A stretch of DNA of 64,000 nt from Octopus vulgaris (Eukaryota), in assembly GCA_951406725.2 (NCBI GenBank), contig OX597818.1, positions 56,172,001-56,236,000 on the forward strand, written 5' to 3'. The notes beneath the pieces were generated by a model. That model was not told the DNA's origin. It saw only the letters and a list, made by a program, of their open reading frames with translations, and did not search any database. The position numbers and the translations under genes were made by a program. This document shows positions 3,550 through 53,615 of the stretch, one piece after another; position 1 is the stretch's first letter; every line of letters begins with the position of its first letter.

Positions 3550-3760
3550 TGACGAAGACAAACACGACAGTGACGAAGACAACAACGACGATGACGAAGA
3601 TGATGATGAAGATGATGAAGATGATGACGATGACGACGAAAACGAAGACAATGATGACGACAACGATGATGAAGATGACGACGATGACGAAGATGAAAAT
3701 GATGACAATGACAAAGATGACTACATTGATGATGACAATGATAATGATGATAATAACGAT
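3550..3760 (+). repeat. (GAT/GAC/GAA)n trinucleotide low-complexity tract
   Basis: Directly visible; it generates the D/E-rich pseudo-ORF 3515-3793. Confidence 0.95.
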
Positions 3761-4306
3761 CCCATGCCTCACCCACATGCAACCACTTTATGATGGTGGT
3801 TGATTCTGTTTTATAATTGATCGGTCACTGCGTATACCTGCCCAGAAATCTTCAGCATTATTGGTGTATATATCAGTGACAGGATTCACAAAATAACTTA
3901 CAATTCTATGGATTATTGATTCTGGCCAACATTACCAGCAGTCACAGTGCCAGGGTCACTGCAGTTTGCTTGGGACATTCTCAAGACCTCCTCATTTTGT
4001 CAGTCATCATCATCATCATCATATTAACATCCACTGTTCTTTGTTTGCATGGGTCAGACAGCCTATTGAGGCAGGTTTTCTACAGCCAGTGCCCTTCTTG
4101 TCACCAGCCCCCACCTGTTTCCAAGGAAGCTAATATTTCCCCACAGTCAGCCATGTCACAGAATATTGGAAATGGGTAACACTGTTTTTATAACAGTGAT
4201 GCTTAATTTCCAACTTTCATGTGATGCCAAGACAAAATGACACAAACACGCACATCCATTCACAAAGCTTTTGTTGGCCCGTGGCTATAGCAGAAGACAC
4301 TTGCCA
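3690..4306 (+). repeat. 617-bp segment duplicated in inverted orientation at 14142-14759
   Basis: By-eye alignment with the reverse complement of 14142-14759 shows 4 substitutions and one 1-bp indel. Confidence 0.95.
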
Positions 4307-4347
4307 TTGCCCCCAGGGGGCAATACCGCCCACTTTGAGTACCACTG
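4307..4347 (-). mobile_element. Left end of a hAT-Charlie-type MITE split by inversion
   Basis: Minus strand reads cagtggtactcaaagtgggcgg. Flank gtgtagac (4348-4355) is the reverse complement of gtctacac at 14873-14880. Confidence 0.8.
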
Positions 4348-5606
4348 GTGTAGACTATTTACGATGTAAAGGGAGTTAATTTGAAATTGTATTGTTAGTC
4401 TTCATGTAGGTAAGAGGGCTCTGAAAGGGTCTCAGGGAGTAGTATCCCTGCCTTCCTGATCTAGTTTTCCACCACATTTCTTAAAAATTGTGGTAGAGGC
4501 CTTGGGACCACTCATGTCTAGAAACTGGGGTTGGGGGTAAGCAAAGGCATGCTGCCCGTAGAAAATCCAGCTTCAAAAAACCCCTCATGATAGCAAAGGA
4601 GAATGGGTACCAGCCAGCCCAAAGGTTGAGGTGGGCTGCACCTGCCTACCTCGGTTGCTATGGAATTGAGGTAGATCTTGCCACCCCCATTAACGGGGAC
4701 AAAAAGCCGGATTTAAAACACTAGATGATGATGATGATTGTTACTCATAAATGCTACCTGTGTTATTGGTAAACCAGGTGGTGTTAAGTGTATGGAAGTC
4801 TCTAATGTTCTGGGAGTATTGAAGTGTGTGAGTGGGATGTGTGACCATGATGAACTGTTGGTGATGTTGATAGTGGCAAATATATGCTTGTGTTTCATTT
4901 TTTTCTCTTTTGATATCTAGTATAGTACCTTTCCATTACTTTATGAATTCCCTTTGTGGTAATAAATAGAATGAAAATTTTATCTAGTGAGATCTCAACA
5001 GAGATTTGAACCCTAGCTTTCAGATTTTCCCAGTCTAGGACCATAAACTAAAAGTGTCGCCATAAATGTGTCAGCATGAATATAGCTCAAGCAGTCAGCT
5101 TTTGACTGACTTATTACGATTGGTGTGGCAAACTTCATAAGAAGTATGCAAGTTTTCTTGCCGAACAGTTTGACTGAAGTTTCTAGAAGAATAGCTAACA
5201 GTTATAAAAAGACTGGCGAATTCAGCCTAACCAGAGAGCCACTATTTAGGGGGATCAATATTGCTTGTTTCAACAAGTTGTTCTCTCTCCCCGATCTTTC
5301 TCTTTTAATTAACATAATTATGTTGTCGTTAACAATAAGCACTAACATTCACTTATAGTGTTCATTAACACGTGTTAATTATATGCAGTGATTAATTTTC
5401 TTGCCTTACTTCTATTACATTATCCAGCAAGTTGTATACAGAAGATTCCTGACCATTATGTCCATGGAATATTGATCTATTAATTTATTGAATGTAGTTT
5501 TGTAAATATAACGAGGCAGGTTAATAATGCATTAGGAAACTCAATTAATGTAAGTGTGGTCATTGTCTACAAACACAACCTTCCTAATGAGTAAACAGTA
5601 TAAATA

Positions 5607-5839
5607 AGGCGGTCACCTGGCAGAAACATTAGCACGCCGGGTGAAATGCTAAGCGATATTTCGTCTGCCGTTATGTTGTGAGTTCAAATTCCGCCGAGGT
5701 CGACTTTGTCTTTCATCCTTTCGGGGTCGATAAATTAAGTACCAGTTACGCACTGGGGTCGATGTAATCGACTTAATACCTATGTCTGTCCTTGTTTGTC
5801 CCCTCTGTGTTTAGCCCCTTGTGGGTAGTAAAGAAATAA
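5607..5839 (+). mobile_element. SINE family B, near full length
   Basis: ggcggtcacctggcagaaacattagcacgccgg...gtagtaaagaaata. Confidence 0.9.
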
Positions 5840-5915
5840 GTATAAATATGTATATTATGTGGCCACCCTCACAGAAAAAGTGTCATGCTCCTCAAAATGA
5901 CATACTGTTTTTATA

Positions 5916-6287
5916 TCTTTTACTTGTTTCAGTCAGTAGAATGTGGCCATGCTGGGGCACTGCCTTGAAGAACTTTGGTTGAGTGAATCGACCCCAGAAC
6001 TTATTTTTATGCCCGATACTCATTCTATAAGTCACTTTTGCTGAACTGCTAAGTTACAGAGACACAAACACACCAACATCAGTTGTTAAGCAGTTGTGGG
6101 ACCCACGCACACACATGCACAAATATATGACAGGCTTCTTTCAGTTTCCGTCTACCAAATCCACTCAAATCTTCGGTCAGCCTGAGATTATAGTAGAAGA
6201 TATTTGCTAAAGGTGCCATGCAGTAGGATTGAACCTGGAACCATGTGGTTGGAAAGCAAACTTCTTACTGCACAGCCACTCCTGCGC
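5916..6287 (-). mobile_element. tRNA-derived SINE family A (internal TA/TG microsatellite, gtaaaagag tail)
   Basis: Minus-strand head gcgcaggagtggctgtgcagtaag...ggttcaatcctactgc; body matches other family A copies. Confidence 0.85.
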
Positions 6288-6956
6288 ATGCACACACACA
6301 GATGCATGGCTTAGTGGTTAGGGTGTTGCGCTCAAGATTGCGAGATTGTGGTTTCGATTCCCAGACCAAGACTGCATTGTGTTTTTGAGCAAAACACTTC
6401 ATTTTACATTGCACTACAATCATTACATCATCTGACATGTGGCACCTGTTGCACCTGTACAGGTAATGTCGATTTGAAAGAAGGGAGGGAGCTTATGTGA
6501 ACACAAACATTTGATCACTATAAGCAAACCAACTCTGTGTGGCTGTTCGGTAAGACATTGCAGAACACTCATACGTTGTCTAATGATGGGAGGAAAAACA
6601 TGGTAAATGAAGAAATATTACCTAATTTGGAAATGGATGAGGGTTAGCAACAGGAAGGGCGTCCAGCCATACAAAAAAATCTGCCTCCACAAATTCTGTC
6701 TGACCCATGCAAGCATGGAAAAGTGGATATTAAATGATATTCTATTCTTTTCCTTTATAACGATAATAGTGGGGTGCCACATAAAATCACCCATGCAGTG
6801 TCATGTAAAAGCACCCAGTACACTCTGTAGAGTGGTTGGCGTTAGGAAGAGCATCCAGCCGTAGAAACCATGCCAAATTGAATCCAGGTAAAAAAAAAAT
6901 AAGTCACATGTAATACCATCATATATAAAATGTGTTGTCAATATGTACAAGTCTCG

Positions 6957-7600
6957 AGGTAGTGAGCTGCAGACTTGTTAGCATGCTGAATGAAATGCTT
7001 AGTGGTATCCTGTCTGTCTCTTCGTTCTGAGTTCAAATTCCACCGAGGTCGACTTTGCCTTTCATCCTTTCAGGGTCGATAAATTAAGTACCAGTTGCAG
7101 ACTGGGGTTGATCTAATCAACTGACCCCCTCCCTCAAAATTTGGGCCTTGTGCCTAGAGTAGAAAGGAATATGTACAAGTCTCAAGGCAGTGAGCTGGCA
7201 GACACTTGAGGACGCCGGACGAAATGCTTAGCGGTATCCCATCTGTCTTTACATTTCGAGTTCAAATTCCACCGAGGTCGACTTTGCCTTTCATCCTTTC
7301 AGGGTTGATAAATTAAGTACCAGTTACGCACTGGAGTCAATCTAATCACCTGCCCCCCCTCCTAAGATTTCAGGCCTTATGCCTAGAGTAGGAAAGAATA
7401 TTTATATTATCTATGAAGGCGGTGAGCTGGCAGAAACGTTAGCATGCTGGGTGAAATGCTGAGCAGTATTTTGTCTCTCTTTACGTTTTGAGTTCAAATT
7501 CTTCCGAGGTAAATTTTGCCTTTCATCCTTTCAGGGTTGATAAATTAAGTACCAGTTATGTACTGGAGTCAATCTAATCAACTGTCCCCCTCCCCCAAAA
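6957..7600 (+). mobile_element. Three tandem SINE family B-type copies
   Basis: Repeated gagctg(g)cagac/aa...gagttcaaattc...aattaagtaccagtt units at ~6957, ~7186 and ~7418. Confidence 0.85.
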
Positions 7601-8955
7601 TAATACAAGACACTTGCCCAAGGTGCTATGCAGTGGGACTGAACCTGGAACCATGTGGTTGGGATGCAAGCTACTTACCACACAGCCACTCCCTTCTTTC
7701 CTAGACAAAAGTGTTATTTTTTCTGTGACTTTATTATCAGCCAAGGCCAAATCAGACTGGAATCTGGAGCAACTCCCCAGCCTGTCAGCTCTTGTCAAAC
7801 CGTCCAACCCATGCCAGCATGGACAACAAACATTGAATGATGATGATGATTCAAGGGAGATTTGGTTGCTATTTCTAACAGACTCAATGACTAAACAAAG
7901 CCATGCCCCCCCACCGCCCCCAGTTAACTTGTTCTTTTTGTAGTATGGCAGTAGTGTTGTGGTTATTCTTGTGGTTGTGTGGTGTTGGTTGTAGTGTTGT
8001 GAATGACATTGTTGTACATGTGATGCGGTGTTTGCAGTCTGTGGTGGCTGTCTCTCTCACCATAGCAACAGATCATAATAGATAGCTCGCTCTTACACAC
8101 AGTTGCTTGATCACACACTCACAGTATAGCAGTCATACACACACACACACACACACACAATCACACATGTGGTGTAAATAAACACTCACCCACAAATAGT
8201 CTAACACTTATATACACACAGTGGCACTGTTCAACCGATATCCTGTAAACCCACACACACTGGTGCTGATATCCTCTATGTACATAGCAACAGACACACA
8301 CATACTGGTGTAGTGATCTCTCTCTCTCATATCGTTTACTGGTTTCAGTCATTAGACTGCGGCCATGCTGGGGCACTGAGGTACTTTTTATTTTTAAGCC
8401 TGGTCTTTTTCGCTGAACTGCTAAGCTATGGGGACATAAACACACCAACACCAGATGTCAAGTAGTGGTGATGATGGTGATAATGGTGGTGGGAACAAAC
8501 ATAGACACACACACACACACACACACACAGATATATATGTATACAACAAGCTTCCACACAGTTTCTTGTTTCTTTACTACCCACAAGGGGCTAAACACAG
8601 AGAGGACAAACAAGGACAGACAAAGGGATTAAGTCGATTATATTGACCCCAGTGCGTAACTGGTACTTATTTAATTGACCCTGAAAGGATGAAAGGCAAA
8701 GTCGACCTCGGTGGAATTTGAACTCAGAACGTAGCGGCAGACGAAATACCGCTAAGCATTTCGTCCGGCGTGCTAACGTTTCTGCCAGCTCGCTACCTGA
8801 GCTTCCACACAGTTTCTGTTTACCAAATCTACTCACATGGTTTTGGTCAGCCCGAGGCTATAAAAAAAAAACACTTGGCCAGGGTGCCACGCAGTGGGAC
8901 TGAACCTCGAACCACATGGTTGCAAAGCAAACATATTACCACACAGCCATGTTGT

Positions 8956-8991
<36 letters not shown>

Positions 8992-9201
8992 TACACTGAT
9001 GCTAGTATTCTATATACACACAGCGACTCATCCTCCCATGTAGTGATAGACTGTGACATGCACATATACACATACTCACACACACATACATATATACAAA
9101 TACTTACACACTGGTGTACTGATCACTTACATATACACACACATTGCTGCTGATTTTCCCCTATACACCCTGTCTTGTAAACACCCAGTCGCTGGTATTC
9201 C

Positions 9202-9610
9202 TTTATTCTTTTACTTGTTTCAGTCATTTGACTGTGGCCAAGCTGGAGCACCATCTTAAAGGGGGGGTTTTTGTTCAAAGAACTTGACCCCCAGGACTTA
9301 TTCTTTGCAAGCTTGGTACTTATTCTATCGGTCTCTTTTGCCAGACTGCTAAGCTATAGGGGACGTAAACACACCAACATCGGTTGTGAAGCAATGATGG
9401 TTGGGGTACAAATGAGGACATACACACACACACACACATATATATGTATATATACGACAGGCTTCTTACAGTTTCCGTCTACCAAATCCACTCAAAAGGT
9501 TTTGGTAAGCCCAAGGCTACAGCAGAAGACACTTGTTCAAGGTGTCACACAGTGGGACTGAACCCAGAACCATGTGGTTGGTAAGCAAGCTTCTTACCCC
9601 ACAGCCACAC
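9202..9610 (-). mobile_element. SINE family A
   Basis: Homology to other family A copies. Confidence 0.85.
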
Positions 9611-10999
9611 TTGAGCCTTCTATATACACTCACTGGTGTGGTGATATCATCTATATAACATCTAGTAGTATGGTGTTCTTCTCTATAAACATTCACTTGT
9701 ATAGTAATATCATTTACATATATTCATTATTGCAGTAGTTTTCCTATATATACACCCACTCGTGAAATATCCTTTATGTACATATATTGGTGTTGTGATA
9801 TCGCTTATATATCCCCACTTTTGCAGTGATATCATCTGTGTACATCTACAGCTGTACTGACGTCCTCTATATACACCCACTCAGATAGTGATATCACCAA
9901 CATACATTCGCTGGTGTGGTGATATCCTTTACATATGCCAAGTCTGGTGATATCACTTGTCTGCACCACGTGGATATACACACAGCTTGGCTGTTCCATC
10001 AAGTACTCTTCCACCCTACTGCTGTCACTGAAGTGAAACTGTTTGATGCGTCAAGTCACCATGGAAACACTGCAAGTTGGTCTGCATTTCTCTGGATTTT
10101 TAACAATAATTGGTGTGGGTGGTGCAGTGATTGTAATGGTAGTAGTATAAGGGTGAGGTGTTGTGGCTGTAGTTTGTAATGGTGGTGGTGATGGTGGTGG
10201 TATTACATAAGTTGTGATAGTGGTTAAAGCAGTAGTAGTTTTGGTGCTAGTGCACTGGTTGTAGCATAGTGGTGCATTATGGTAATGGTGGTTGTATTCT
10301 ATGGTGTATGTTGTAGTTGTAGTAGTTGTAGTTTTGTAGTGGTTGAAGTGATTGTAGTATATTGATGGTGGTGGCGTTTCACCCCAGGTCAACTCCCATT
10401 AAGCTGACCTATGGCCAAAGGCATTCCACCCATGGCCATCCTGTCTTTTTCCCTTAGTCAGAACACCCATTATCCAAAGTATCATTTTTTTTTTTAAGAT
10501 TATGGAAGTATGATTTGAGATGGATTAGGCTGCTATTTTTAGCAGGTAGGATGACCACGTATGGGATCCCTTGTTTCTATGTGGTGCTGTCTTGTGTCTT
10601 ATGCTTGTTTCAGTTATTGGACTGCGACCATACTGGGGCACCATCTTGAAGGGTTTAGTTGAGCAAATCGATCCCAATACTCATCTGTCTGTAACCCTGG
10701 TACTTATTCTATTGGTCACTTTTACCAAACTGTTAAGTCACAGTGACATGAACAAACCAACACCTGTTGTGAGGTAGTGATGAGTGGGATAAACACAAGC
10801 ATTAAGACACACACGCATACTTATGTATATAGATATGGGCTTCTTTCAGTTTCCATCTCCCAAATCCACTCACAAGGCTTTGGTCAGCCTGAAACTCTAG
10901 TTAGAAGACACTTTTACAAGGTGCCTTACAGTGGGACTGAACCTGGATCCATGTGGTTGGGAGGCAAACTTATCACACAACCATATCTTTATCTATTAA

Positions 11000-11401
11000 C
11001 TAGAAGTATCGCCTGGTGTTGCTCGGGTTTGTTTCGACCCTTTAGAACTGGAATTTTTGAAAAGTAAAAATTTTGCATTATGTAGCTTGTTATTCTCTCT
11101 AAGTGAACGCTTTTCTGGTTGAAATACACCGAAAAATGCCGACACAGCAATAAAAAAATCATAAAAAAAAGTAGGGATTTTCATAGAAAAAAAAAGCACC
11201 TTTTTTATGTAAATAATTTTTGGTGTTAACATGGTCCAATTTGAATTTTTTCTTCTACAGAAGGAAGAGCAAGCCTTCTTCTATCATACTCTCAATTTTG
11301 GTCAACTTGTGCCGCAGGGTCTCGGAGGGAGATAGTGTTAGTTGAAGGCTACCAAACCTACCATACACAGACAACTTCAGCTTTGTATATATATAGAGAG
11401 A
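11000..11401 (-). mobile_element. Non-autonomous Helitron-like element
   Basis: Minus strand: A|TCtctctatatatatacaaagctgaagttg...acaaacccgagcaacaccaggcgatacttCTAG|T. Near-identical to 28481-28867. Confidence 0.8.
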
Positions 11402-11963
11402 TTACTTGGATAATCCCAGGTGTTTAAAATGTTTCATCTCCCTATGGATGGTAAGAAACTCTAGGGAGTACTGAACAGTAGAAGATCTTCCGAAAAGAAA
11501 CTGCCTTCATGCAACTATGTCAGTCCTTAACTCCTTACATTTTTAAAGAGTCCTAGCTGTACCTAGGTCATGACACCTAGAAACCCCTCTATTTCCACAT
11601 TCTTTGCTATTGCCTACATAAGTGGTTCTCAACCATTTTTTAAAATCTTTGAACCCCTTTGCTTACTATTTTATTCAGGTGGGATCCCGATAGCCATTCG
11701 ATGTTTAAAAACTAGTTTTTTTAGAAATGTCTTTCAAAATTCCTATTTTGTTTTTCACACATTAACTTGTGTAGGTTGATCTATGTAAAACATTAGAGAA
11801 AAAACCCGAATTGTTTCTAGTATTGTTAAATGTATTTTCTAAGAATGGATCGCAAGAAATGAAGGTGAAAAATTTGCTGATGTTGCTTGTGGTTAGAATG
11901 GTACATGTGGGAGGTTTTGGTTCCTGAAGCCTTTGCATGTTCTGTGTTAAGTTACTCTGTTAG

Positions 11964-12667
11964 TCTTTTACTTGTTTCAGTCATGTGACTGTGGCCATGC
12001 TAGAGCACCGCCTTTAGTCGAGCAAATCGACCCCAAGACTTATTCTTTGTAAGCCTAGTACTTATTCTATCGGTCCCTTTTACCAAACCACTAAGTTATG
12101 GGGACGTAAACACACCAGAATCAGTTGTCAAGTGATGTTGGGGGGGCAAACACACACACACACACACATTATATATATATATATATATACAACAGGCTTT
12201 TTTCAGTTTCCCTCTACCAAATCCACTCACAAGGCTTTGGTTGGCCCAACATCATAAGCGGAAAGTGTAACCTCTCGATAGAGCTGTTCTTCACTCCTGC
12301 TCCAGAACATCGGCTGCGGGGTCACTCTGAAAAGATCTATCTGCGACGATTTCATCTCAATCGAAGGAGAGGGGCTTCCTCCGTCCAGGTTGCGGATCCG
12401 TGGAATAAGCTGCCAGACGAGATAGTGAAGATGCCAACGACTGCTTGGTTCAAAGTCTCCCTTGACCACAAATGGCCTGAATTCTTTGCATGAACATCAC
12501 CCTGTACATAACTCCATGTCCCCCTACATGGCCTTGCTTTTTGCTTTTTGAGCCAAAAAATTAACTTAACTTAGAAGACACTTGCCCAAGGTGCCACGCA
12601 GTGGGACTGAACCCGGAATCATGCGGTTTGTAAGCAAGCTTCTTACCACACAGCCACTCCTGCACCT
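11964..12667 (-). mobile_element. SINE family A interrupted by a CR1-type LINE fragment
   Basis: Family A sequence stops at ...ggttggccc (12247) and resumes at tagaagacacttgccc (~12572). Confidence 0.85.
12248..12571 (+). mobile_element. CR1/L2-clade LINE 3' fragment
   Basis: ORF 12125-12493 C-terminal part LRGHSEKI...RRRG...WNKLPDEIV...FKVSLD is the typical CR1 ORF2 end; (aactt)n tail. Confidence 0.8.
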
Positions 12668-12951
12668 ATGGTGAAGTTGGTGAAGAATGTTGCCGTTTGG
12701 TGTGATTGTTGTCTTTTAGCTCCATGTTAGAGTCGATGGAACACATTCAAAGGTATTTCAGCCGTGACCTTTGTGTCTTTGGAGAAATCTAGAACCAGAT
12801 TATTCAGAAACACAATTTTATTGTTTTAGTACCTCTTATTTTGTGATGATTCAGCATGGATGATCCACAGATGAAAACATTGAACAATTTAGCACCTGAC
12901 CCTGTTTTGTAGTTGTTATAAGTTAATTGTATTGTTGTCAATGATAAACCA

Positions 12952-13420
12952 GGCACGTGTGCTGGTGGCATGTAAGAAAGCACCATTTGAGCGTGATCGT
13001 TGCCAGTGCCGCCTGCCTGGCTCCCATGCCGGTGGCACGTAAAAAGCACCATTCGAGTGTGGTTCTTGCCAGTGCCGCTTGACTGGCTCCTGTGCTGGTG
13101 GCACATAAAAAGCACCATTAGAACATGGTTGTTGCCAGTACCACCTGACTGGCTCCTGTGCTGGTGGCACGTAAAAAGCACCATTTGAGAATGGTCGTTG
13201 CCTGTACCACCTGATTGGCTCCCGTGCCTGTAGCATGCAAAAAGCACCCACTACACTCTTGGAGTGGTTGGCGTTAGAAAGGGTATCCAGCTGTAGAAAC
13301 ATTACCAGATCGGATTGGAGCCTGGTGCAGCCTCCTGGCTTCCCAGTTCTCAGTCAAACCGACCAACCCATGCCAGCATGGAAAGCGGATGTTAAACAAC
13401 AACGACGATGTTGATGATGT
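12952..13420 (+). mobile_element. SINE-like family C with ~5 tandem ~60-bp sub-repeats and (GAT)n tail
   Basis: Repeated ggtggcacgtaaaaagcaccatt...gactggctcc units followed by ggagtggttggcgttag...catggaaagcggatgttaaac. Confidence 0.85.
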
Positions 13421-14141
13421 GTATGCGTGTAGATGTGCTTGTGTGCACATGTGGATATTTGTATGTAGGGTTGTGTGTGTGTGTTATGACATTGCATTGT
13501 TGCAATGTCATATTTCTTATGTCAGATTTCTTTATTGAATGTAAAGCTTATTTAGCCATATTTTGCTTTGAGACTTTCATGATGTGATTGTTTATTTTTA
13601 GAATGACAATGTAAGGTTGATGTGAAAACCAGATCTGGTCAGTTTGACCATAAAATGGGTTGAATACTTTGGCCAGATGCGGTCAGTTTAAATCCCATAA
13701 AAGTGTTATTTAGAAACACACAAAACATTTAAAAAAAAACACTGTACAAAGCAACTCATTTCTTACAATATCTAATTTGACAAGATCTCTCATATTTCAA
13801 ATTCTATTAGACTTTGTATGTGAAACGCCAATAATCTGTTTTATGTCTCAGAATGGTAATGGTACCATAGCAGCCATTCTGTGGCATTGATATTTTTGTA
13901 ATATTTATTTGTTCCACAATAATTTTAGAAGTCAGAGTACAACTCGGTGGCAGAACCAATTATGAGATGCAAATTAACAAAAGATTAATGTTCACAACTA
14001 GAAATCATGTCGGGAAGAATTATTAACCAATTTTGGTTTAATGTAGTTAATAGTAACACTGTTGCCAGGCATGGCTGTGTGGTCGAGAGTTCTGTTTTCC
14101 AACCACATGGTTTCAGGTTCAGTCCCACTGCGTGCTATTAT

Positions 14142-14759
14142 TGGCAAGTGTCTTCTGCTATAGCCACGGGCCAACAAAAGCTTTGTGAATGGATGTGCGT
14201 GTTTGTGTCATTTTGTCTTGGCATCACATGAAAGTTGGAAATTAAGCATCACTGTTATAAAAACAGTGTTACCCATTTCCAATATTCTGTGACATGGCTG
14301 ACTGTGGGGAAATATTAGCTTCCTTGGAAGCAGGTGGGGGCTGGTGACAAGAAGGGCACTGGCTGTAGAAAACCTGCCTCAATAGACTGTCTGACCCATG
14401 CACACAGAGAACAGTGGATGTTAATATGATGATGATGATGATGACTGACAAAATGAGGAGGTCTTGAGAATGTCCCAAGCAAACTGCAGTGACCCTGGCA
14501 CTGTGACTGCTGTGTAATGTTGGCCAGAATCAATAATCCATAGAATTGTAAGTTATTTTGTGAATCCTGTCACTGATATATACACCAATAATGCTGAAGA
14601 TTTCTGGGCAGGTATACGCAGTGACCGATCAATTATAAAACAGAATCAACCACCATCATAAAGTGGTTGCATGTGGGTGAGGCATGGGATCGTTATTATC
14701 ATCATTATCATTGTCATCATCAATGTAGTCATCTTTGTCATTGTCATCATTTTCATCTT
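14142..14759 (-). repeat. Inverted copy of 3690-4306
   Basis: Reverse-complement identity about 99%. Confidence 0.95.
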
Positions 14760-14872
14760 TTGAAGAAAAGTGGGGTGATAATGGGGTTGTAATGGTTAGT
14801 TGGGGTGGGAGTGCTAGGAATGTGGCCTGGGTATCGGTGGGGCAGCAGCCTGAAAATGTTTGCGAACCACTG
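14760..14872 (+). mobile_element. Right part of the split hAT-Charlie-type MITE
   Basis: Ends ...aatgtttgcgaaccactg followed by 8-mer gtctacac, close to the NTCTAGAN Charlie target preference. Confidence 0.8.
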
Positions 14873-16734
14873 GTCTACACCAATACACACACAGGCTTCT
14901 CCAGCTAACAACATCAACTCTTCCCCAGGCATCACTTTCTGCTCTACATATCTGGATATGACAACCATTCGAGAATCGATTTTCCAACTGTACTCTGACC
15001 ACCAACCAATTAATTATCATTATCACACACACACACACACATCAATGAAGACAATAAAAGCACTTTTACAAACTAATTGAGAAAACTAATTACTTTGATA
15101 TCTCAGTGGTCCACACAAAATTACAAATATACATCTAGAAACATCTCAAAGATGAAGGAACCTCTACACTCTCCAACATCTGCAAATACTCTTTGGACCT
15201 GGAGCTTAACAACAACAACAGCAATATCAACAACAATATCTACAGCACAGAAAAAGCACAACACACTGCCAAAACCACCGGAAAAATTACACACACACAC
15301 ACACACACAAGTACACACACATATTAGAAGTTATAAGAATGACCAGAGGGAGAGCGAAAGAGAGCGGAGAGAGAAAATGTCAGTCTAGATGATGGCCAGA
15401 AAGTCAAGTGGATAATTTGTAATGTTGCTGGATGAGATGGAATTATTAGATAAACGATGATGAGTGGCATTTAAGCAGGATTAGGGTTGTCGAAGGCTTT
15501 TTAGTGATTGATGACTGGCTTTTGTCGTAACAGCAGCAGATAGGATTTTGCTCTTTCACCGACCATGAATACACAGCAGTGTCAAGAGATTGGGTTTAAT
15601 AAGTAAATTACACGCAATGTGTGTGAAGGCACATGGCTCAGTGGTTAGAGTGTAGGGCTCGCAATGAGGTAGTGAGTTCAATTCCAGGACCAGGCAGTGT
15701 GCTGTGTTCTTGAGCAAGACACTTTATTCCACATGGCTCCAGCAGTTGCAGAAAAGAGTTGCAATGTCACTGGTGCCAAAATATATTGTCCTTTGCCTTT
15801 ATCTTGGATAACATCAGTGGCGTGGAGAGGGCAGTGGACTCGTGGTCAGTAGATCGCAGTTTCAATTCCTAGACCGGGCGTTGTGTGTGTTTATTGAGTG
15901 AAAACACCTAAGGCTCCACGAGGCTCTGGCAAAGTCTATATATTTGTAATTTTTGGAAAATTTTTTTTTTAAATTGAAAAAACTTTAAAATTTCAAGTGT
16001 CTGGAAAAAATTTTAAAGCATCCTGTTTTGGGCTGGAGAAAATAAACAACTTGAATATTGACCAATTAGTCCAAAAGAAAATTAGAAATATGCTTCAAGT
16101 GTATGTAATTTTAGACTGTCTGGTTAGTTAGCACACAGCTTGGTAACTTTATCATCAACCGATTTTTACAGAAAGGAAAGAAAGGAAAGAAATTAAAAAC
16201 ATATCAAATTATCAAGAAGAAAAAAACCACCAAAGAAACAAAGAAATGAAAAGTGGTAGGAGGGGGGGGATTAAGTAGTAGATGGTGGCAAAGAGAGTAA
16301 CAGGTTGTACACCCAGGACCAAATGGTGTGTTCGGCTGTGATTGCAAAGAGTAACAATCTTTTATTTGTTTCTGGCAGTGGACTGTTGCCATGCTGGAAC
16401 ATGTCTGGAAGGGCTTCGTTGAACATATCACTACCAGTGCTTATCTGATGTTTTAAAAAATTGTTTAACACTTATTCTTTCAATCTCTTTTACCAAACTA
16501 ATAAAGAATAAGAGCAAATTCTAAAGAGTAATTATAGGTGACCAATGACAACTTCATGAGCCATCTTAAGGTACAATTGGGCACTTTAGGACATAGATCA
16601 CCATTAGGCTCAAAAAGTCCAAACAATTTAGCCCTCACTCCACCCCTAAAACTACAGATATATATAGGAGTAGAACCGTTAGGAAGAAAAATTTTGTTTG
16701 CAAACTGCGAGATGTTATGTTGTATTTTAATGAC

Positions 16735-17529: not shown

Positions 17530-19952
17530 TTGGTTTGTCAATTAGATGAACACTTTTTGTTAATTTTGCCAACTTCTAGAGGTGATGGCTTATTAGGAGT
17601 TGGCTGGTCAACTCGGTCAGACACAACTGGTTCTTCACAGTTTGGTTCATAAGAATGGTCTGCTGTTCTCTAAATTGACTATCAACCTCTTTTGATGGAC
17701 ACGTCGTAAATTTCTTCTGTATTTCTTTCTAGTGGTCATCTAGCTCACATATATGCTTTTCTTCCTGTTGTTGGTATCCACGCTTTGCCACTTATTTATA
17801 CGTGGTCACCAGGTTCCAACAATCCGAGTGCTTTTCCTACATGTTGGTCATAATATTTCTTTATTAGGCTTTGGTGCTCAGCATGTCTATCCTGAACATC
17901 TCTTGGATTTTCTATACAAAGATACAATAGCTGTCATGATGTAGAGTAGGAGTGGCTGTGTGGTGAGTAGCTTGCTTACAAACCACATGGTTCCGGGTTC
18001 AGTCCCACTGCATGGCACCTTGGGCAAGTGTTTTCTACTATAGCCTCGGGCCAACCAAAGCCTTGTGAGTGGATTTGGTAGATGGAAACTGAAAGAAGCC
18101 CATCGTATATATGTATATGTGTGTATGTTTGTCCCCCCAACATCGCTTGACAACCGATGATGGTGTGTTTACATCCCTGTAACTTAGTGATTCGGCAAAA
18201 GAGACTGATAGAATAAGTACTAGGCTTACAAAGAATAAGTCCTGGGGTCGATTTGCTCGATTAAAGGTGGTACTCCAGCATGACCATAGTCAAATGACTG
18301 AAACAAGTAAAAGAGTAAAAGTGTTGTCCTCAGACGAGGATTTAATCTGCAGGTAATTTACCAATCTTTTCTGTTGGAGTATTTCGTATGTCTAACAGTG
18401 GCCTATATTTCTCTCTCTATATTTTTTTTATCAGTATTTTTATAGCTTTCACTGCAATCTTGGCTTGTCCATTCGACTGTTGGAATTGTGGACTGGATGC
18501 CATATGGTGAAATTCCCATATTTGACAAAATTTTTAAATTCTGCAAAAGATAATTGTGATGCTTTATCTAAAATCAGGATCTCTGGAATTCCATATCTAG
18601 CAAAAACTGAACTCATTTATTACTGTAAATCTGGTTCAATCTCTTAATTGTATTACTTCAACAAATGTGAAGTAATAGTCAACAATAACAATGAAATCAC
18701 TATAATTAGTCGAGAATAATACAACTTTTGACCAAGGATGTTGTGGAATCTTATGAGACATTAATAGTCCTTTAGTGTTGTCTGTTCTGAATTTGGCACA
18801 TAGGGTACACTTTGCAACTGCTTCCTGAATTTGTGAATTTATACCACACCGAAACAGTACATCTCTGGCTCTCTGCTTATTTCTTAGAATACCTTGATAT
18901 GACTGGTGAATCAGGTTCACTGCTAAGCAATTCAGGAATGATTACTCTGTCAATTTTGAAAAGCGGTTGGTTGTGAGATGCAATTTTATCACACAACTCC
19001 CAATATGGTATCACTTGATGTTGGACATTCCTCTCTGGATTTCGGTCAACCAATTAACATAATGCCATGCAGTGCTGTCAGACTAAAACTTTGGCTGATT
19101 GTCATCTGAAGCTGTTCTGGTTTCATTAGTGGCATCGGAAGTGAGTTGATAACATTGATATCCAGCAATTCAGCTTCTTTGGACATTCTCCAGAGAGAGT
19201 ATCAACTACAAGTATCTCTTTGCCATATTTGTACATGATTCTGCAATCATATCTTTCCAGGCCTAAAATCATTTTCTGGACTGTCTACTTGACAAAGATT
19301 CTTCTGGAAAACCAATGTGGTTTGTGATGATTTGCAGCTAATGCTGTCTTTCCATACACATAGTTATGGAACCATCTACATCCAAAGACTATGGATATCA
19401 GTTCCTTCTCTGGTTGCAAGTAACTGTTTTTCTTTTTGGTGGTGTGGATGTTGCCATTAATGCACATGATGTATAAGTGATGGAATGATCATCTTGTAAT
19501 ACGCATGCTCCTAGACAGTCTTGTGAGCTGCCTGCAGGAAGTATGATTGGGTTTTTGACATCAAAATACATTAGAACTGGAGCATTTGTTATCAGTTCTT
19601 TTAATCTATCAAAACTCTTCCTGTGTTTATCATCCCATGCGAATTCAATGTTATCTTTGATAACCTCATGGAATGGTACTGAAACGTGAGATAAATTAGG
19701 AATTTACTTTGCAACATACTCAGCCATTCTCAAGAATCTAAATCTTCCTTGTTTGTGGATCGTATACGACCGATGTAACCAAATTCGTCTTAGTCATTTC
19801 TACTTCCTCAGGGTTTAGTTAAGCCCTGCTTGAGTCACACAGTTAAGGACTCGTTTAAATCTCCTGTCGTGTTTTTGTTGGAATTATCCCACTCAAATAT
19901 GTCATCAATGATGACATCATCGATTCTTTCAAGTATATTTTCCATAAGTCAT

Positions 19953-26320: not shown

Positions 26321-28466
26321 TAGGGTTGCCAACAGTCCTTTATTCAGCTCTATTTGTTCTTGTCCTTCATTGAGATTTGAAATACTAGTTGTCCTTTATT
26401 TGGAAATCGTTTTGACTGGTACTTCAATTTCCTGCTCTCAAGATGTGATTGCAAAAGCGTTTACTTCTTGTAAGAGTACAAATTCTGTCAACTCTGCAGT
26501 CTGCACAATACCAGAAGCACAGAGCAGCTGACCACAGACTGGCATATAAAATTAGCCTCATTTTATCTATAACTCAATTCTCCATTTCAAAAAAAGGCAC
26601 TCATTTTGGGAAAACGAGAAAATCGGAAACTTTGTTACTAAATGTGAGAATCATCACCAAGAAAAAAGAAAGAAAAAACAATAGAGAAAGAAAGAAGGTA
26701 CCGTTGGACGTTTGGAAAGGCAATACCTCTGTCTGAACTGAACTGGGGCCCACGAAGAAGAAGAACCAAAACAAATATGGCGTGTTATACAACAAGGTGG
26801 TGATGAGGCCTGTCACAAAATTGAGCCATAATTTGTTATAAATACCAGAAGAACAGTGAAATCTATGTGAGAAAACTTGTAATAGTAGTGCCAATATTTC
26901 ATGTTATTATCAGATAACAATATTAATTGAAGGTGTGTTTTTGAGACATGATCATTTTTACATTGTTACAAGAATGTATTGATTAGGCCCAACTTCGGAA
27001 AGACTTCCTCCCATCCCCCACCCCATTTTCTCACAAATTATTGGTTTTTTAAAAATTTTTTTTGCCCAAAACCCACGTTTTTGGATACGGAAATTCCAGG
27101 AAATTGCAAAAAAAAATCGGAATTTTGAAATTTCTCACCCCCCCCCCCATTCCGCCAATTTCTTCATTTTTCACTTTTTTCCATAACCCTTATCCTAAAA
27201 CCCCAACCCTAACCCTAAGTAGAAAAATTTTTGGAAATTTGCTTCAGAAATCTCCATATTCTTTTTCGCATATTTTGACAAAATAAAAATTGTGAAAAAA
27301 AAAATTTCTGAAAATTTGCGGAATTTTTTTTCAGAATCATAATCTCCATATTTTTCTGAATATTTTGAAAAAAAAATTGTGAAAAAAGGTAAAAATGAAG
27401 AATTTAGTGGTAGGGGAGTAATTTCAAAATGCCATTTTTTGCCAATTTTTTTTTACAGATTCGTATTCTCCGTATCCGAAAACGGAGAAAAAAAATTGTG
27501 TAGAAAAAAAAATTAAATTTAAAAAGGGGTGTGTTTTTTTGCGGGAGGGGGGGCATAGAAAAGGCAGTCTTGCCCCAACTTCTCAAGTGCTAGCATTTCG
27601 ATTTCGGTTCACATTTCAAGTTATGTGCCTAGATACATGGTTGTTGGACCATAGAGTATCTTTTTGCTTAATATTGTCACGGTTGGTGAAAAATTATAAT
27701 TAGTAATTATTTTCAAATCCAATACAGCTAGTGACATCATATATTCGGAAAACAGAATAGATTTCGATGAAAATTCAACATTTGGCAAATTACCAAATCT
27801 AAGTTTCTTAGGATATTCATTCCCAAAGTTTCAGAAATTTGTAGAATTAGTAGAACATTTGAAGCTAGAAGGAAAACTTAAATTAAAGATGGATGAACTT
27901 TTTGGGTGAAGTAGTATAAATTCAAAGAAACTTCGACACTATTTCAAAAGCTCGGAATTCTTCATAAGCTCAAAAACAATAAACAGAAAGTGGTATTTTA
28001 TTATGAAATCTATGGACTTTAAATGTACCAATGTTTTCAAAATAGTTTCTTTTGTTCTATCAATTCCTGGAACATCATCTTATTGCGAGAGAGTTTTTAG
28101 TTTAATGCCATCTAAATGGCGAGATGAAAGGAAACGATGCTCTGTAGAATTAATTGAGAATGAACTTCTCATATATTTTAACATAAAAGGTAGTTGCTTG
28201 GAATTCGCTAAAAACATCAAAGATGATACAAATTTCCTGAAGGCAGCAAAAAGCCAGGGCAAATATAGTTTTAGAAATTAGAATCTTTTGATCAAGCTAA
28301 AAAAAATGTCTTCTCATTCTTGTTTTGGTAAGAGAAATGTAATTTTAAACTGCATTTAATATTGGTATCTATTATAATCTATAGGAACTGAATTAAAATT
28401 TGTACACTTAAATATCAATAAAGTTTTTATGTCCTTTATTGTTATTTAACAGAGTTGGCAACCCTA
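26321..28466 (+). mobile_element. Internally deleted hAT (Blackjack-like) DNA transposon
   Basis: TIR tagggttgccaac ... gttggcaacccta; degenerate 8-bp TSD aggatggc/aagacggc. ORF 28003-28281 LSIPGTSSYCERVFSLM..KWRDERKR matches the hAT C-terminal dimerisation domain. Confidence 0.9.
26997..27574 (+). mobile_element. MITE with GG..CC termini and 8-bp TSD (Merlin-like), nested in the hAT
   Basis: ccaacttc|ggaaagact...agtcttgcc|ccaacttc; long imperfect subterminal inverted repeats; internal ccctaa-like motifs. Confidence 0.8.
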
Positions 28467-28480
28467 AAGACGGCTAATAA

Positions 28481-28867
28481 TCTCTATATATATAAAGCTG
28501 AAGTTGTCTGTGTATGGCAGATTTGGTAGCCTTCAACTCACACTATCTCCTCCGAGACCCTGCGGCACAAGTTGACCAAAATTAAGAGTATGATAGAAGA
28601 AGGCTTGCTCTTCCTTCCGTAGAAGAAAAATTTCAAATCGGACCATGTTAACACCAAAAATTATTTACATCAAAAAGGTGCTTTTATTTTTATTAAAATC
28701 CCTATTTTTTTACGATTTTTCACTGCTGTGTCGCCATTTTTCGGTGTATTTCAACCAGAAGAATGTTCACTTAAAGAGAATAACAAGCTACATGATGCAA
28801 AATTTTTACTTTTCAAAAATTCCAATTCTAAAGGGTCAAAACAAACCCGAGCAACGCTGACTGCTAG
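28481..28867 (+). mobile_element. Non-autonomous Helitron-like element
   Basis: A|TCtctatatatataaagctgaagttg...acaaacccgagcaacgctgactgCTAG|T. Same family as 11000-11401. Confidence 0.8.
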
Positions 28868-29448
28868 TAATAGTAACATTAAAAATAATCTTTACTCAAT
28901 TTTATAATTATTTTCGGCACGGCCCTTCTATTAATAAAATGAATTTACAATCGAGGAGGGAAACACAGAGGTACACGTACACTTGAAATAAACGGCTTAT
29001 ATAAAATAAATGGACAATACTTATTTACAACGTCTAGTCGGGTGTAAAGGCAAAAAAAAAAGTTAAAATACAATTAAGATACAAGCCCACACAAATGAAC
29101 GATCTGTTGCTACACCAATAAATACAAATTCGAGAGGAAACAAAAGAATATTAAATATACATTCACAGAAATGTATTTGTGAATTTAGTCTGCTCTTAAA
29201 AACAATAGTAACGAATTAGAGTTACAATGGTTAAATGTACTTTGAGAAAATAAACAGTAATTTTACAACATCGAATGGAGAAGGCCAGACAAAACAATAG
29301 ATATATAACAAGTCAACTCGTATATGTTTTTAATAACAATAAACAGTGAAACAAAAAATGTCTGCCATTTTGGTAATTTGTTTTTAGGTTTTCAGAAACA
29401 AACAATGAATCGATTATTCCAATATAAAACCATAAATATCAAGGTATA

Positions 29449-30002
29449 ACTACAGATTTCTGCACAGCGACTTTGGATGATTATAACTTTCAAGAAAATG
29501 GATATTTTTTAATGAAATTTTCTATGAATATGTGTTATATTATGTAGATTTCGAATATATAAAAGTTTGGGAGGAAAGGCTTCTAAGACGGGGCGGGAGG
29601 GGAATTTCGGAAAATTCACCGATGTCCACTTCAAGTCGTCTTAACTTTCAAGAAAATGGATATTTTTTAATGAAATTTTCTTTGAATATGTGTTATATCA
29701 TTTAGATTTCGAATATACAAAAAGTTCGGAGGAAAGTGTTTTAGGAGGGATGGGGTGGGGAACTTCGGAAAATTCACCGGAGTCCACTTCAATTCGTCTT
29801 AACTTTCAAGAAAATGGATATTTTTTAATGAAATCTTCTACAAATATACCTCGGACTATGTAGATTCCGAGGACATAGGAATTATGGGGGAAAACAATTG
29901 GGGGTTATTTTTGAGAACCGTTCCTCAATCGGAGATGTTTCCGAACAAGTCGTCCGTATGTTTCATTTTCTCCGTTTTGTGCGTTTGTGCATCCGTAGAT
30001 TT
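29449..30002 (+). repeat. Interspersed repeat with ~158-bp internal tandem units; inverted partner at 31336-31731
   Basis: aactttcaagaaaatggatattttttaatgaaat occurs three times (~29485, 29643, 29801). Ends actacagatttctgcac...gtgcatccgtagattt. Confidence 0.85.
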
Positions 30003-32645: not shown

Positions 32646-32864
32646 AATACGAAATTTTGTCAAAAATGTTCAGAGTAAACCGTGTTCTGCGTGAGAAATT
32701 CTACCAGTATTCGAAGTTTCAAACTGTTTAGTTTAAAAAAATTAATTAATTAAAAATTTTCTGACTGAGATGGAATAGATTCGTTCTTTCTTTTGGTAAA
32801 GATGGAATTCACAGGTGACAAAGTTTAGATGAGGGGGAGTGGGGTAAAACTTATAAGGACATGA

Positions 32865-33550
32865 GAGAGAGGAGGAGGATATAGATAGAGAGACGGAAAG
32901 AGAGAAAATGATAGAGGAGGAGGATATAGATAGAGAGGGACGGGAAGAGAGAAAATGATAGAGAGGAGGAGGATATAGATAGAGAGGGACGGAGAGAGAA
33001 GATGACAGAGAGGAGGAGGATATAGATAGAGAGGAACGGAAAGAGAGAAAATGATAGAGAGGAGGAGGATATAGATAGAGAGGGACGGACAGAGAGAAAA
33101 TGATAGAGAGGAGGAGGATATAGATAGAGAGGGACGGAAAGAGAGAAAATGATAGAGAGGAGGAGGATATAGATAGAGAGGGACGGAAAGAGAGAAAATG
33201 ATAGAGAGGAGGAGGATATAGATAGAGAGGGACGGGAAGAGAGAAAATGATAGAGAGGAGGAGGATATAGATAGAGAGGGACGGAAAGAGAGAAAATGAC
33301 AGAGAGGAGGAGGATATAGATAGAGAGGGACGGAAAGAGAGAAAATGATAGAGAGGAGGAGGATATAGATAGAGAGGGACGGAAAGAGAGAAAATGACAG
33401 AGAGGAGGAGGATATAGATAGAGAGGGACGGAAAGAGAGAAAATGACAGAGAGGAGGAGGATATAGATAGAGAGGGACGGAAAGAGAGAAAATGATAGAG
33501 AGGAGGAGGATATAGATAGAGAGGGACGGAAAGAGAGAAAATGACAGAGA
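32865..33550 (+). repeat. 49-bp purine-rich minisatellite, ~14 copies
   Basis: Unit gagaggaggaggatatagatagagagggacggaaagagagaaaatgata; period 49 (for example 33061 vs 33110). Continues as GA-rich low complexity to ~34900. Confidence 0.95.
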
Positions 33551-35427
33551 GGGGGAAGAACAGGAGGGGACTGCTAGGGGGAAGAGGAAAGAGAACGTTA
33601 ATGGTTTAGAGAAAGAATGAAACAGTAAGAGATAATATGAGAGGGAGTTAAAAGAGAGAGAAAGACAGTGTGAGAGGGAGGGTGAACGTGTATGTGTGTG
33701 TGATTGGGAGGGAGAGGGTTGAAAGAAGAAGAGGTAAATGTAACGAGGGAGTGAGTGTAAATTAAATAGAGATAATGTAGATAAGGAGAGAGGGAGACTG
33801 ATGAGAGAAATAGAAAGAAAGATGACTGAGTTTAGATAAAGAAGGAAGCAGACGACAGAAAGTCCGTCAGATAAAGAGAGTGGGAGATGGGGGAGAGACA
33901 AAGAGAAAGAAAGAGAGAGAGAGGGGGGTAGCAGTGGCTTATTGTAGATAAAATGTGACAAGAATAGAGGGTGAGTGAATGAGAAGAAGAGGGAGAAAGA
34001 AAATGAAATTAGAGACGGAGGAGCAATGTGAGTGTGAGTTAGATAAAGAGACAGAGTGACAAAGAGAGGATAAGTAAGATAAAGAGAGGAAGGTGACAGA
34101 GAGCAAAGGATATTTTAGATAGAATGACAAAAAGACGGGGTGAGTAAATGAGAGAGAGAGTGAGTGAGAGGATATGTTTGATTGATAGATAGATTAATAG
34201 ATAAAGAGATAGAGAGAGAGGGGGAGAAAGAAAAAGAAAGTAAGTTGAATAAAAAGAGAGGAGGTAAGTTATGTATGAAGAAAGGAGGGGAGAGGGAAGA
34301 GTTAAGTTAGAAAAGGAGGAGCAATATGAATGTAAGTTAGACAGAGAGAGAGGGAGGAACAAAGAGACAATGAGAGGGTTAGTTATATAAAGAGAGGGAG
34401 CAGGAGAGAGAGAGAGAGAGATAATGAAAGGGTAGATAGAAAAAAGAGAAACAATGAGGGTTAACGATAAAAAGACAATGAAAGAATGTAATGAGAGAGA
34501 GAGAGATGAGAGGTTAAGTTAGATAAAGAGAAGGGGAGACAATGGGAAGGTAAAATATAAAGTTTTATTGTAAGATTTGTATAAAGAAAGAGACAGAAGT
34601 ACAAAGAGAGGGGGAGAAAGAGAGAGAGCGACAACGAAAGGGAATGTTAGATAGAGGGAGGGAGATAAGGAGAGAGATAGTATGTTAGATAGACAAAGAG
34701 AGTGAGTGAGAGAATAAGTTGGAGAGAGAAAAAGTTGATGAAAGACTATATATATATATAGAGAGAGAAGCAAACAGAGAGTGAGGGATAGAAAGAGATA
34801 GACATTGAGTGAGAGGGAGGGGTGGAATGAGATAGATAGACAGATAGATAGAGGCAGGGAAGGGGTAGAAAGAGAGAGACAAAGAAAAAAAGAAAGAAAG
34901 AAATACAATGAAATCACTATTCGAATATTAAGTAATATATTGATTACTAAGTTTGGCATGAGGTGTCACGTTTTCTGTGGGGTGGTGATGGAGGCAACAG
35001 TGGTGGTGGGGGGCGATAGTGGTGTTAGTAATGATGATGGTGGTGGTGGTGGTGGTGGTAGTGGTAGTGGTGGAGGTGTTGGTGGTGATAGTGGGGGTGG
35101 GGGTGGGGGTGATAGCGGTGGTTGTAATGATAGTGTTGGTGGTGAGGGTGTACCTGATTGGGCACTACAGATGGATGCAGAATGTTCCAGAATGGAGTAA
35201 GTGGTGCAAGAACACACACGGAAACAAAAAATGTTGCTGAGAATGGAGCAAGAACACACATGGAAATGAAAAGTGTCGCTGAAGCGGTCACAGATGTGTG
35301 ACAAAAGATTTCCGGACGATGGACAGGAGTTAAAATAATAAAATAAGAACAGTAATAAATGGGTGAAGAAAAAGAATATATAGTGCATGTATTTATTTGA
35401 CTTACACACATACACACACATATGATG

Positions 35428-45868: not shown

Positions 45869-46419
45869 TGATTATTAATGGCACCAGTGACGTCGCAACT
45901 CATTTCTACAGCTGAGTGAACTGGAGCAATGTGAAATAAAGTGTCTTGCTCAAGACCACATCACAGAGCCTGGTCTGAGAATCAAACTCACTACCCCATG
46001 ATAGTGACCGCCCCCCCCGATGCTCTAACCACTGAACCATGTGCTAGATATATACATACATATACACGACAGGCCTCCCTCAGCCTCCATCTACCAACTC
46101 CACCCACAAGGCCTAGGTAGGCCTGAGGCTATAGTAGAAGATACCCACCCAAGGTGTCACACAGCAGGACCAAACCCAGAACAACATGATTGGAAAGCAA
46201 GTTTCTAACCCCACAACCACGCCTGACTTTGTTATTATTATTTTATAAACATTCCAGCATGGTCTCTACCTCGATTCAAACTACCTCAATCAGAAGTAAG
46301 GCATGTCTACACAAGTGTACCCTTCCTTCGACTTTGTTTCCTCATAACCTTTAGAAGAATGGTAATTTTTAAAATAAAGTTTCCACAAATAACTTTCAGG
46401 TTGTGTAAATTCCAATTAT

Positions 46420-47198
46420 ATTGGAAATTCTTGTGAAGAAAACTTTTTCAGAGGTGGGACGAGAGGAGTTTCTTCACATGAACTGGACACACCTTGGCAG
46501 TCAGTCAGCCCAAAGTCTTTGGCCAAGGACTCTGCTTTCAGTCTTATGTGTACTGTGCTTACCCCTTGGTGTGAGGCTCTCTGCTCAGGTACCCAACTCT
46601 CAACCTGGTCTTCTAGGACTGGCCGTCTAGCTTTCGTGCCACAATTTGCTCTTTTGGTCAGTTGTGGTGAATCTTCCTTTTTGCACCATGAACAGACCAT
46701 GGCTTCATTTATGCTGTGCTGTCTTGCTTTAACTCTGTTACCATTTTCTTTTGCATAGTTGATACATCCTAAATTGAAGACAGCTGTTAACTCTTTCTCG
46801 GAGGCATTTTGAAACTACATACACGTCAGCAAAAAAAAAGCTAGCTGCGGAATCATAGCTCTATGGATCTTTTAAACACTGGTGTGCTCTATGTCTGGAT
46901 AAAACCAAAATTTTCCCCAAAATTTGGCCCTGTGGTTTAACCCTTTAGTGTTCAGATTAATCTGTTAAATGTAATACTTTTTTCACTCAAATTATTTTCA
47001 ATTAATCACACATTATCTTAAAGCTTTGAAGTTTCAATGGTGTGATAGTTTATTCTTAGAATGTCAATGTAGGTTAGGTGTGAGGGGCTAGATACGGCCA
47101 GTTTGAATGAAAAACATGTAGGATATTTAGGCCGGATATGGCCGGCTTAAACACCAAAGGGTTAAATACCGATGCGTTTTATAGACCGGAAAATACGG
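46420..47198 (-). mobile_element. pogo/Tigger-type DNA transposon 5' part with decayed transposase
   Basis: TA|ccgtattttccggtctataaaacgca terminus. Peptides INYAKENGNR..ARQHSINEAMVCSW (Brinker-type DBD) and RPVLEDQVESWVPEQRASHQGVSTVHIRLKA (CENP-B HTH). Confidence 0.8.
46941..47161. mobile_element. piggyBac-type MITE with TTAA TSD nested in the pogo element
   Basis: TTAA|ccctttag ... ccaaaggg|TTAA. Confidence 0.8.
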
Positions 47199-52733: not shown

Positions 52734-53238
52734 AATGGCAGTGCCCCAGCATGGCCACAGCTCATGAGCTGAAACTAGATGAAATGATAGAGTTAAAGTG
52801 AAATATTAAACAGAAATCGAAGAGTGACAAGTTGGACTTGAACTACAAAAGGAATGAAGGATACTTAACTCTTCCGAAAGTTTTTTCTATACATTATCCT
52901 GTGATGCATCTGGACACACTGTCAGTGATGCATCACGGTGTCATTGTGTGTTTGGGTCTTGAAACATCAGACAACCTTACTCAGGCAACCCAGCTGGGGT
53001 TGACCAAGGAGCAGTTTGTGCCCAGTTGGCATTATTTCTAATAGCCCTACCCTTTGTAGCATAGCCTGCACCTTCTGGTTAAAAATAGTAATAAGCAAAA
53101 AACTTGAGAGCGTAATTTAGAACTATTTATTGATTTATTGATTAGCAATTGATGCAAGCCGTTTCTGATGACAAATTGTGATGTCAATGGTGACACCATT
53201 GGGATTTCCTAAACATGTTATAACCTGTTTAAAAATCA

Positions 53239-53382: not shown

Positions 53383-53440
<58 letters not shown>

Positions 53441-53543: not shown

Positions 53544-53615
<72 letters not shown>

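Follow-up and report, generated by a model that had tools for sequence, protein, structure and literature searches.

A probable 9.8-kb inversion between inverted 617-bp duplicates, with one breakpoint in an old hAT-type MITE, in Octopus vulgaris

A window of 64,000 nucleotides from Octopus vulgaris (positions 56,172,001 to 56,236,000 of contig OX597818.1; G000:C5:56172001-56236000, where G000 is an assembly of 227 contigs and 2.8 Gb) contains two inverted copies of a 617-bp segment, hereafter D, each adjoined by one part of a single miniature inverted-repeat transposable element (MITE) of hAT type. With moderate confidence, we interpret this arrangement as a 9.8-kb inversion between the copies of D, one breakpoint of which fell within the old MITE, and which arose in a single repair event guided by a near-match of sequence. 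Inverted copies of one segment are found at both ends of the span, as in a duplication-flanked inversion (dupINV) of the staggered-break type known from Drosophila; this class is likely the best reading of the locus, which would then be an ordinary scar of DNA repair.

Duplicated Segment and Split MITE

Positions 3690-4306 align to the reverse complement of 14142-14759 with 99.19% identity over 618 columns, in agreement with an earlier note on this DNA that had counted four substitutions and one indel between them. The copies form the longest inverted pair within the window, and the only two full-length genome matches of the D-internal sequence 3760-4090 (40 scored of 599 candidates in G000) are both found here; the stretch 13700-14060 gives one genome match, with no second locus among the scored matches in G000. 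Coordinates also bear out the earlier account of the edges of D, in which the left copy has an intact GAT tract and a cut short interspersed element (SINE), and the right copy the reverse. The GAT-type tract is whole at 3571-3754 on the left and reduced to 14695-14756 on the right, whereas the SINE extends over 14066-14197 on the right and is retained in the left copy only at 4251-4305. We take the SINEs of this window to resemble octopus SINEs.

Halves of one MITE had been placed at 4307-4347 and 14760-14872, each followed by an 8-bp target-site duplication (TSD) in opposite orientations, and this match is exact: the 8-mer at 14873-14880 is the reverse complement of that at 4348-4355 in every position. 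Between different copies of the MITE family (29 others fetched; 40 scored of 876 candidates in the genome), an 8-mer is shared in 1 of 406 pairs, a column-wise estimate is 0.0014, and the chance of the flipped match is about 0.001-0.002. Less of the proposed reconstruction survives. When rejoined, the MITE is not complete but 154 bp long, against 255-314 bp for the family copies that have both ends (22 of 29); relative to the family, approximately 20 bp are missing at the join and approximately 100 bp near 14787/14788, representing bases lost at the break and earlier, respectively. Re-inversion of 4307-14759, likewise proposed, would yield two tandem copies of D, with probe positions of 3800 and 4417. 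Inversion of 4307-14141, together with removal of one copy of D, returns a single-copy locus with a direct TSD.

Family copies are numerous, with terminal inverted repeats of approximately 14 bp and a non-coding body. Of the 29, 16 have an 8-bp TSD when up to one mismatch is allowed (the left end being within reach in 22), with T at position 4 in 15 of these 16 and A at position 5 also in 15. By these features the element appears to fit a Buster-type hAT MITE as defined, including an 8-bp TSD of the nnnTAnnn type, in PMC3517528, which, like all articles cited here, is represented by a part of its text. Buster-type MITEs such as Mar are, in that part, similarly short, non-coding and abundant, with terminal inverted repeats and an nnnTAnnn TSD; unlike Mar, the copy described here is internally deleted and split, and no autonomous partner was found for it, none of 30 transposase loci carrying the MITE ends (the best 30 of 150 matches, with 1.5 kb flanks). 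Transposase domains of hAT type are common in G000, with 150 scored matches. Many genome matches to PF05699 are tied in score and occur, on several contigs, within open frames of approximately 720 aa, a pattern that suggests a young family of hAT elements at other sites in the genome. Within the window, a remnant of the hAT dimerization domain occupies 27910-28278 (PF05699, E 6e-5), and no ends of the split MITE were found around it in 26500-30000.

Junction Anatomy

At the left junction, the last eight bases of D nearly match bases lost from the MITE: seven of eight positions agree, including the last three, and the one-mismatch word at the near-match is carried by 14 of 22 family copies. A 7/8 match has a chance of 0.0005 at fixed register, a figure that holds for one junction where both were looked at. 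As the outgroup contigs described below align through this near-match, the MITE loss at the break is placed at 17-20 bp. The right junction (14759/14760) is blunt: neither the GAT side nor the outgroup sequence preceding 14760 has bases in common with it. Repair guided by microhomology is suggested by the near-match at the left junction and by the loss of 17-20 bases. The left junction also coincides with the end of a perfect 9-bp inverted repeat with a 1-base loop, which exceeds its counterparts in all 22 family copies (3-7 bp in 22/22); as a fold, this hairpin is weakly unusual (z -1.89, with 8 of 200 shuffles folding equally well).

The Locus in Related Samples

Public contigs from 5 of 24 listed runs were aligned to the locus: X1 and X2, which are samples labeled organism A from separate studies, X4 (organism B), X19 (organism D) and X18; three raw-read runs, of which too little depth would have been read, and organisms C and E, were left out of the comparison. 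A junction was regarded as bridged if 31 letters were aligned on each side. Contig depth is not a copy number, and every depth comparison below is to be read accordingly.

In organism D, one X19 contig covers 4299-4457 with 3 other letters and has a loose end of 26 letters, the last of which are 14760-14773 in reverse complement, such that both MITE halves are joined, across a spacer of 20 bp of which 8 align to 4299-4306. In organism B, X4 covers 4300-4456, and its copy of D continues at 4306 into the SINE head. The depth of D in X4 is similar to that of its flanks (50-63 vs 51-66), as for a single locus. Thus the MITE is un-rearranged in both X19 and X4, and D was ancestrally single-copy and uninterrupted; the ancestral order is shown to be flank, D, inner segment, TSD, MITE, TSD. 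Records of X4 and X18 run over 14760-14821 without differences, followed by 2 other letters upstream, and because they match this stretch before leaving the window sequence, the approximately 100-bp deletion within the MITE is older than the rearrangement. The earlier note had looked to a sister species for one copy of D and an intact MITE. Organisms B and D do have an un-rearranged MITE, and X4 has D at single depth, but the MITE was by then already internally deleted.

X18 is labeled organism A, yet has most alleles in common with organism B over 13600-15000. Given these alleles, the species label of organism A may span two taxa, and X18 was therefore not counted toward polymorphism within organism A.

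The rearranged right junction is crossed without differences in two of four runs, by X1 (14553-14789) and X2 (14730-14789), and not in X4 or X18. With organisms B and D un-rearranged, this upholds both the rearrangement and the polarity that had been read from the window. The X1 junction record is locus-specific, since it also contains approximately 200 letters of D; in X2, the contig of D halts exactly at 14759 (equal to 3690). In X2, D is about twice as deep as the junction (74.2 vs 38.2), and in X1 about twice as deep as the flanks (33-38 vs 15-17.6). No record crossing 4306/4307 was found among the X1 and X2 records listed (2585 were unlisted, filters applied, and 80% of X2 was read), from which we draw no inference. 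Positions 4363-4404 are uncovered in both samples, and a gap in coverage proves nothing.

Versions of D can be told apart in both samples. In X2, the window-type version has a depth of 73.9 and a diverged version 35.9, the latter with a C>T change at 14198 that is common to organism B, and a split at 4035-4087 has depths of 64.5 and 46.7; in X1, the corresponding pairs are 24.0 vs 18.8, and 35.2 vs 16.7. A heterozygote would be expected to give approximately 2:1:1 for D, diverged D and junction, as is roughly the case in X2, while flank depth in X1 fits less well. From these depths, the variant may still segregate in organism A. Two further candidate signs were rejected. The break of X1 and X2 contigs at 14789 was considered as a sign of heterozygosity, but a second MITE copy (L043, on C13) has the same word and next base; a loose end at 4408 in both samples, considered as different local sequence, belongs to a paralogous repeat on C9.

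To judge from record lengths, both X4 (organism B) versions of D, and one of the X1 versions, have approximately 51 extra letters near 14537/14538 (3911/3912 in the left copy). As both window copies lack this stretch, the duplication would be later than the deletion of these 51 letters.

Differences Between the Copies of D

The copies differ by substitutions at 4041, 4045, 4062, and 4118, and by one extra base at 14513 that is absent from X1, X2, and X4. Polarized with organism B, all five differences fall on the right copy, one X4 record having 2 other letters relative to the left copy and 6 relative to the right; of the two X4 haplotypes, one was seen at the substitution sites. Paralogous SINE fragments (10 alignments) gave an ambiguous polarity for the four substitutions, and organism B was used in their place. 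The chance that five of five fall on one copy is p 0.06. The four substitutions lie within 78 bp (p 0.007), and all five differences within 184 bp (p 0.03), although these tests were made after the cluster was noticed. Right-copy alleles stand at double depth in both X1 (35.2) and X2 (64.5). The clustering could reflect error-prone synthesis, such as is described near rearrangements in part of PMC4352052, copying from another haplotype, or a mosaic of haplotypes in the assembly, the last being considered because X1 and X2 carry the right-copy alleles at double depth. Where the event had been called recent, the five differences provide no clock, though the event is absent from organisms B and D.

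Mechanism and Alternative Explanations

In the mechanism that we propose, the MITE would have broken beside its hairpin, and the end of D would have been joined to the broken MITE at the 8-bp near-match. This joining may have proceeded through a backward-copying template switch, or through microhomology end joining of staggered breaks, two routes which the sequence cannot separate, and the other end would have been ligated bluntly. The MITE would have been a passive marker of the event and not its agent. The term staggered break, used previously for this locus, correctly names a known class, but denotes only one of several mechanisms with this pattern.

Several points weigh against an inversion made in one repair event. 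Staggered-break and repair-based models leave the same footprint (PMC7584159, PMC2621351, and PMC5338099, each in part), and on our analysis would appear to fit this one equally. The hairpin signal is weak, and right-copy alleles at double depth are ill-suited to errors confined to one new copy. On the MITE side, the right-junction records extend for 30 letters, one under the bridging threshold, and the source of the assembly may be X1 or X2 itself. The left junction is supported by the assembly and the outgroup near-match, and the orientation of the inner 9.8 kb by the assembly alone, reads spanning the whole of D having not been seen.

The same junctions, identical at both ends, would result from two steps, in which templated copying of D, primed at the near-match 10 kb away and closed with a blunt end, filled a single break in the MITE, and recombination between the inverted copies later flipped the interval. 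We regard this route as a tentative alternative with a modest claim. A single lesion suffices for it, it accounts for two unlike junctions, one with a near-match and one blunt, and it agrees with the placement of all five differences, including the four clustered substitutions, on one copy. It also requires a second event, with a crossover in the 188 bp beyond 4118, and the one-sidedness of the differences is of marginal significance and accompanied by the double-depth alleles of X1 and X2; no intermediate haplotype was seen, although short-read contigs could not show one. A stronger form, in which the inversion was brought about by an inverted repeat that had arisen de novo before it, and a single species still has haplotypes of all three forms (ancestral, insertion-only and inverted), is in our estimation unlikely. 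Alternatively, the templated insertion could be real and the inversion an error of the assembly path, crossing between copies of D or between haplotypes within D. The left copy has the organism B letter at each of the four substitutions, and right-copy alleles stand at double depth in X1 and X2, as a switch of haplotype inside D would produce; that no D-spanning reads were seen would also be consistent with such an error. We nevertheless consider it quite unlikely: the left copy differs from organism B at 4069, and an assembly of so few contigs, with no N between 3000 and 15500, suggests long reads that would span 617 bp.

Two further explanations are very improbable. The earlier note had raised a haplotype-overlap misassembly, whereby the two copies of D are two alleles of one locus placed in inverted order, and their divergence of 0.8% is indeed within the allelic range (5 of 529 letters in X1 and 9 of 524 in X2 over 13600-14129). 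The occurrence of the right junction in contigs of two samples from two studies largely refutes it, and it would also have to accommodate depth of D that is raised in X1 and X2 and not in X4, a left junction seated on an 8-bp near-match with 17-20 bp lost, an absence of gaps, and an inner stretch (13700-14060) with no second locus. The presence of a MITE half and TSD at each end, in a genome with 150 scored hAT transposase matches, might instead implicate the transposon as driver, through ectopic recombination between inverted MITEs (as for Galileo) or alternative hAT transposition. The latter places a breakpoint at the transposon terminus with a new 8-bp TSD. Here, the break lies 41-61 bp inside the element and away from its terminal repeat, and the duplication is 617 bp. 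Nor are there two chimeric copies with exchanged TSDs, but one MITE in two non-overlapping halves, which was internally deleted before the event; the other breakpoint lacks MITE sequence, the MITE ends are missing from all 30 transposase loci compared (out of 150), and an outgroup contig with a single MITE contradicts such an origin.

Relation to Known Inversions

Among inversions of the Drosophila melanogaster group, 17 of 29 have inverted breakpoint duplications, and in 12 of 18 the duplication is one-sided, with lengths of 46 bp to 1.9 kb (PMC1885836, in part). As far as that part extends, the octopus locus is similar in that a sequence present once in the ancestral state now stands at either end as inverted copies, and resembles the 12 of 18 in that the duplicate derives from one breakpoint only and, at 617 bp, lies within their size range. 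Unlike the fly cases, the span is only about 10 kb, no gene is duplicated, and the second break lies inside a MITE, the TSD of which records polarity. Human inversions flanked by copy-number variants (dupINV/INVdup) are ascribed to break-induced replication mediated by microhomology (MMBIR), to fork stalling and template switching (FoSTeS), or to joint repair of several breaks (PMC5338099, in part). They share with the present locus an inversion with duplication at one breakpoint; the present case is non-human and has an additional loss of 17-20 bp at the other breakpoint. On our analysis, the locus appears to share the testable features of the Drosophila and human dupINV class, with the inversion itself read from the assembly.

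Short microhomology at a junction, adjoining sequence capable of forming a hairpin, and point changes near the rearrangement may be features in common with MMBIR/FoSTeS (PMC2621351, PMC4352052) and with inversion O7 of D. subobscura (PMC7584159). Unlike MMBIR/FoSTeS, the near-match is at one of two junctions, and our data do not distinguish replication from end joining. Transposon sequence and displaced TSDs at the ends of an inversion are also features of the Galileo-generated inversion 2z3 of D. buzzatii; unlike 2z3, for which two inverted chimeric copies with exchanged TSDs are described, one passive element is cut in two here (PMC2775673, in part).

No report on this locus appeared in search listings on octopus or cephalopod inversion breakpoints, although supplementary tables of structural variants could list it. 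It is a single locus of little consequence, as no gene was found and good descriptions of the class exist for flies and humans. It is of use as a clean worked example: polarity can be read from one sequence, through the divided MITE and its flipped TSD, and is confirmed by outgroup contigs, with the junctions placed at single-base resolution. If an insertion-only intermediate does exist, it would bear on whether breakpoint duplications are products or causes of inversions; and were the duplication to have come first, the locus would be a living test of two-step staggered-break footprints.

Table 1. Coordinates of features at the locus, in window positions.
Feature	Position	Strand	Basis or remark
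GAT/GAC simple-repeat tract, degenerate	3571..3754	+	Sequence; holds left edge of D (3690)
Segment D, left copy, 617 bp	3690..4306	+	Ends within SINE; X2 contig begins exactly at boundary
8-bp near-match, end of D vs lost MITE bases	4299..4306	+	X19 aligns to 4299, X4 to 4300
Perfect 9-bp inverted repeat, 1-base loop, ending at left junction	4306..4324	.	Candidate fragile site (weak)
MITE, first 41 bp with left terminal inverted repeat	4307..4347	-	Alignment to family copies
Segment interpreted as inverted, 9835 bp	4307..14141	-	Mostly SINEs, other repeats, microsatellites
8-bp TSD, flipped copy	4348..4355	-	8-mer comparison
SINE, 5' part	14066..14197	+	Unbroken across inner edge of right D copy (ancestral adjacency); X4 loose end at 4306 continues into it
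Segment D, right copy, 618 bp	14142..14759	-	Alignment; all five differences here when polarized by public contigs
MITE, last 113 bp with right terminal inverted repeat	14760..14872	+	Family alignment; internal deletion of ~100 bp near 14787/14788
8-bp TSD, original orientation, TA at positions 4-5	14873..14880	+	8-mer comparison

Gene Content and Other Elements

Pfam searches of open frames and one exon test, which are blind to exons without Pfam domains, to non-coding genes, and to an intronic position, revealed no gene within the inverted segment or next to it. The Pfam scan of 1-24090 comprised 120 frames (102 low-repeat frames of at least 38 aa, and 18 added by hand), and that beyond 24000 comprised 111 frames of at least 50 aa, shorter ones being excluded. 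Together these returned transposon remnants and sub-threshold matches only, with one of the latter inside the inverted segment. The single-copy stretch 9940-10120, considered as an exon in one frame, had no matches at E 0.001 in 1.84 billion proteins, and 4990-5580, considered as a unique stretch, proved to be an old repeat.

About 55% of the window matches itself or the fetched loci. Within the inverted segment, a unit of 229 bp is repeated 2.9 times in tandem at 6940-7601, with 82% matches, and a second tandem array, with a period of approximately 98 bp and approximately 96% identity between units, lies at 32861-33559. A broken remnant of a long terminal repeat (LTR) retrotransposon occupies the minus strand of 18400-19700, where an RNase H-like match (PF17919, E 1e-12) and a weak integrase zinc-binding match lie in separate frames; a weak match to the Tc5 transposase DNA-binding domain (PF03221) at 46419-46814 is below the cut-off. 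Self-complementary (palindromic) stretches are present at 1160-1578 and 53238-53811, with arm identities of 82% and 75%, respectively.

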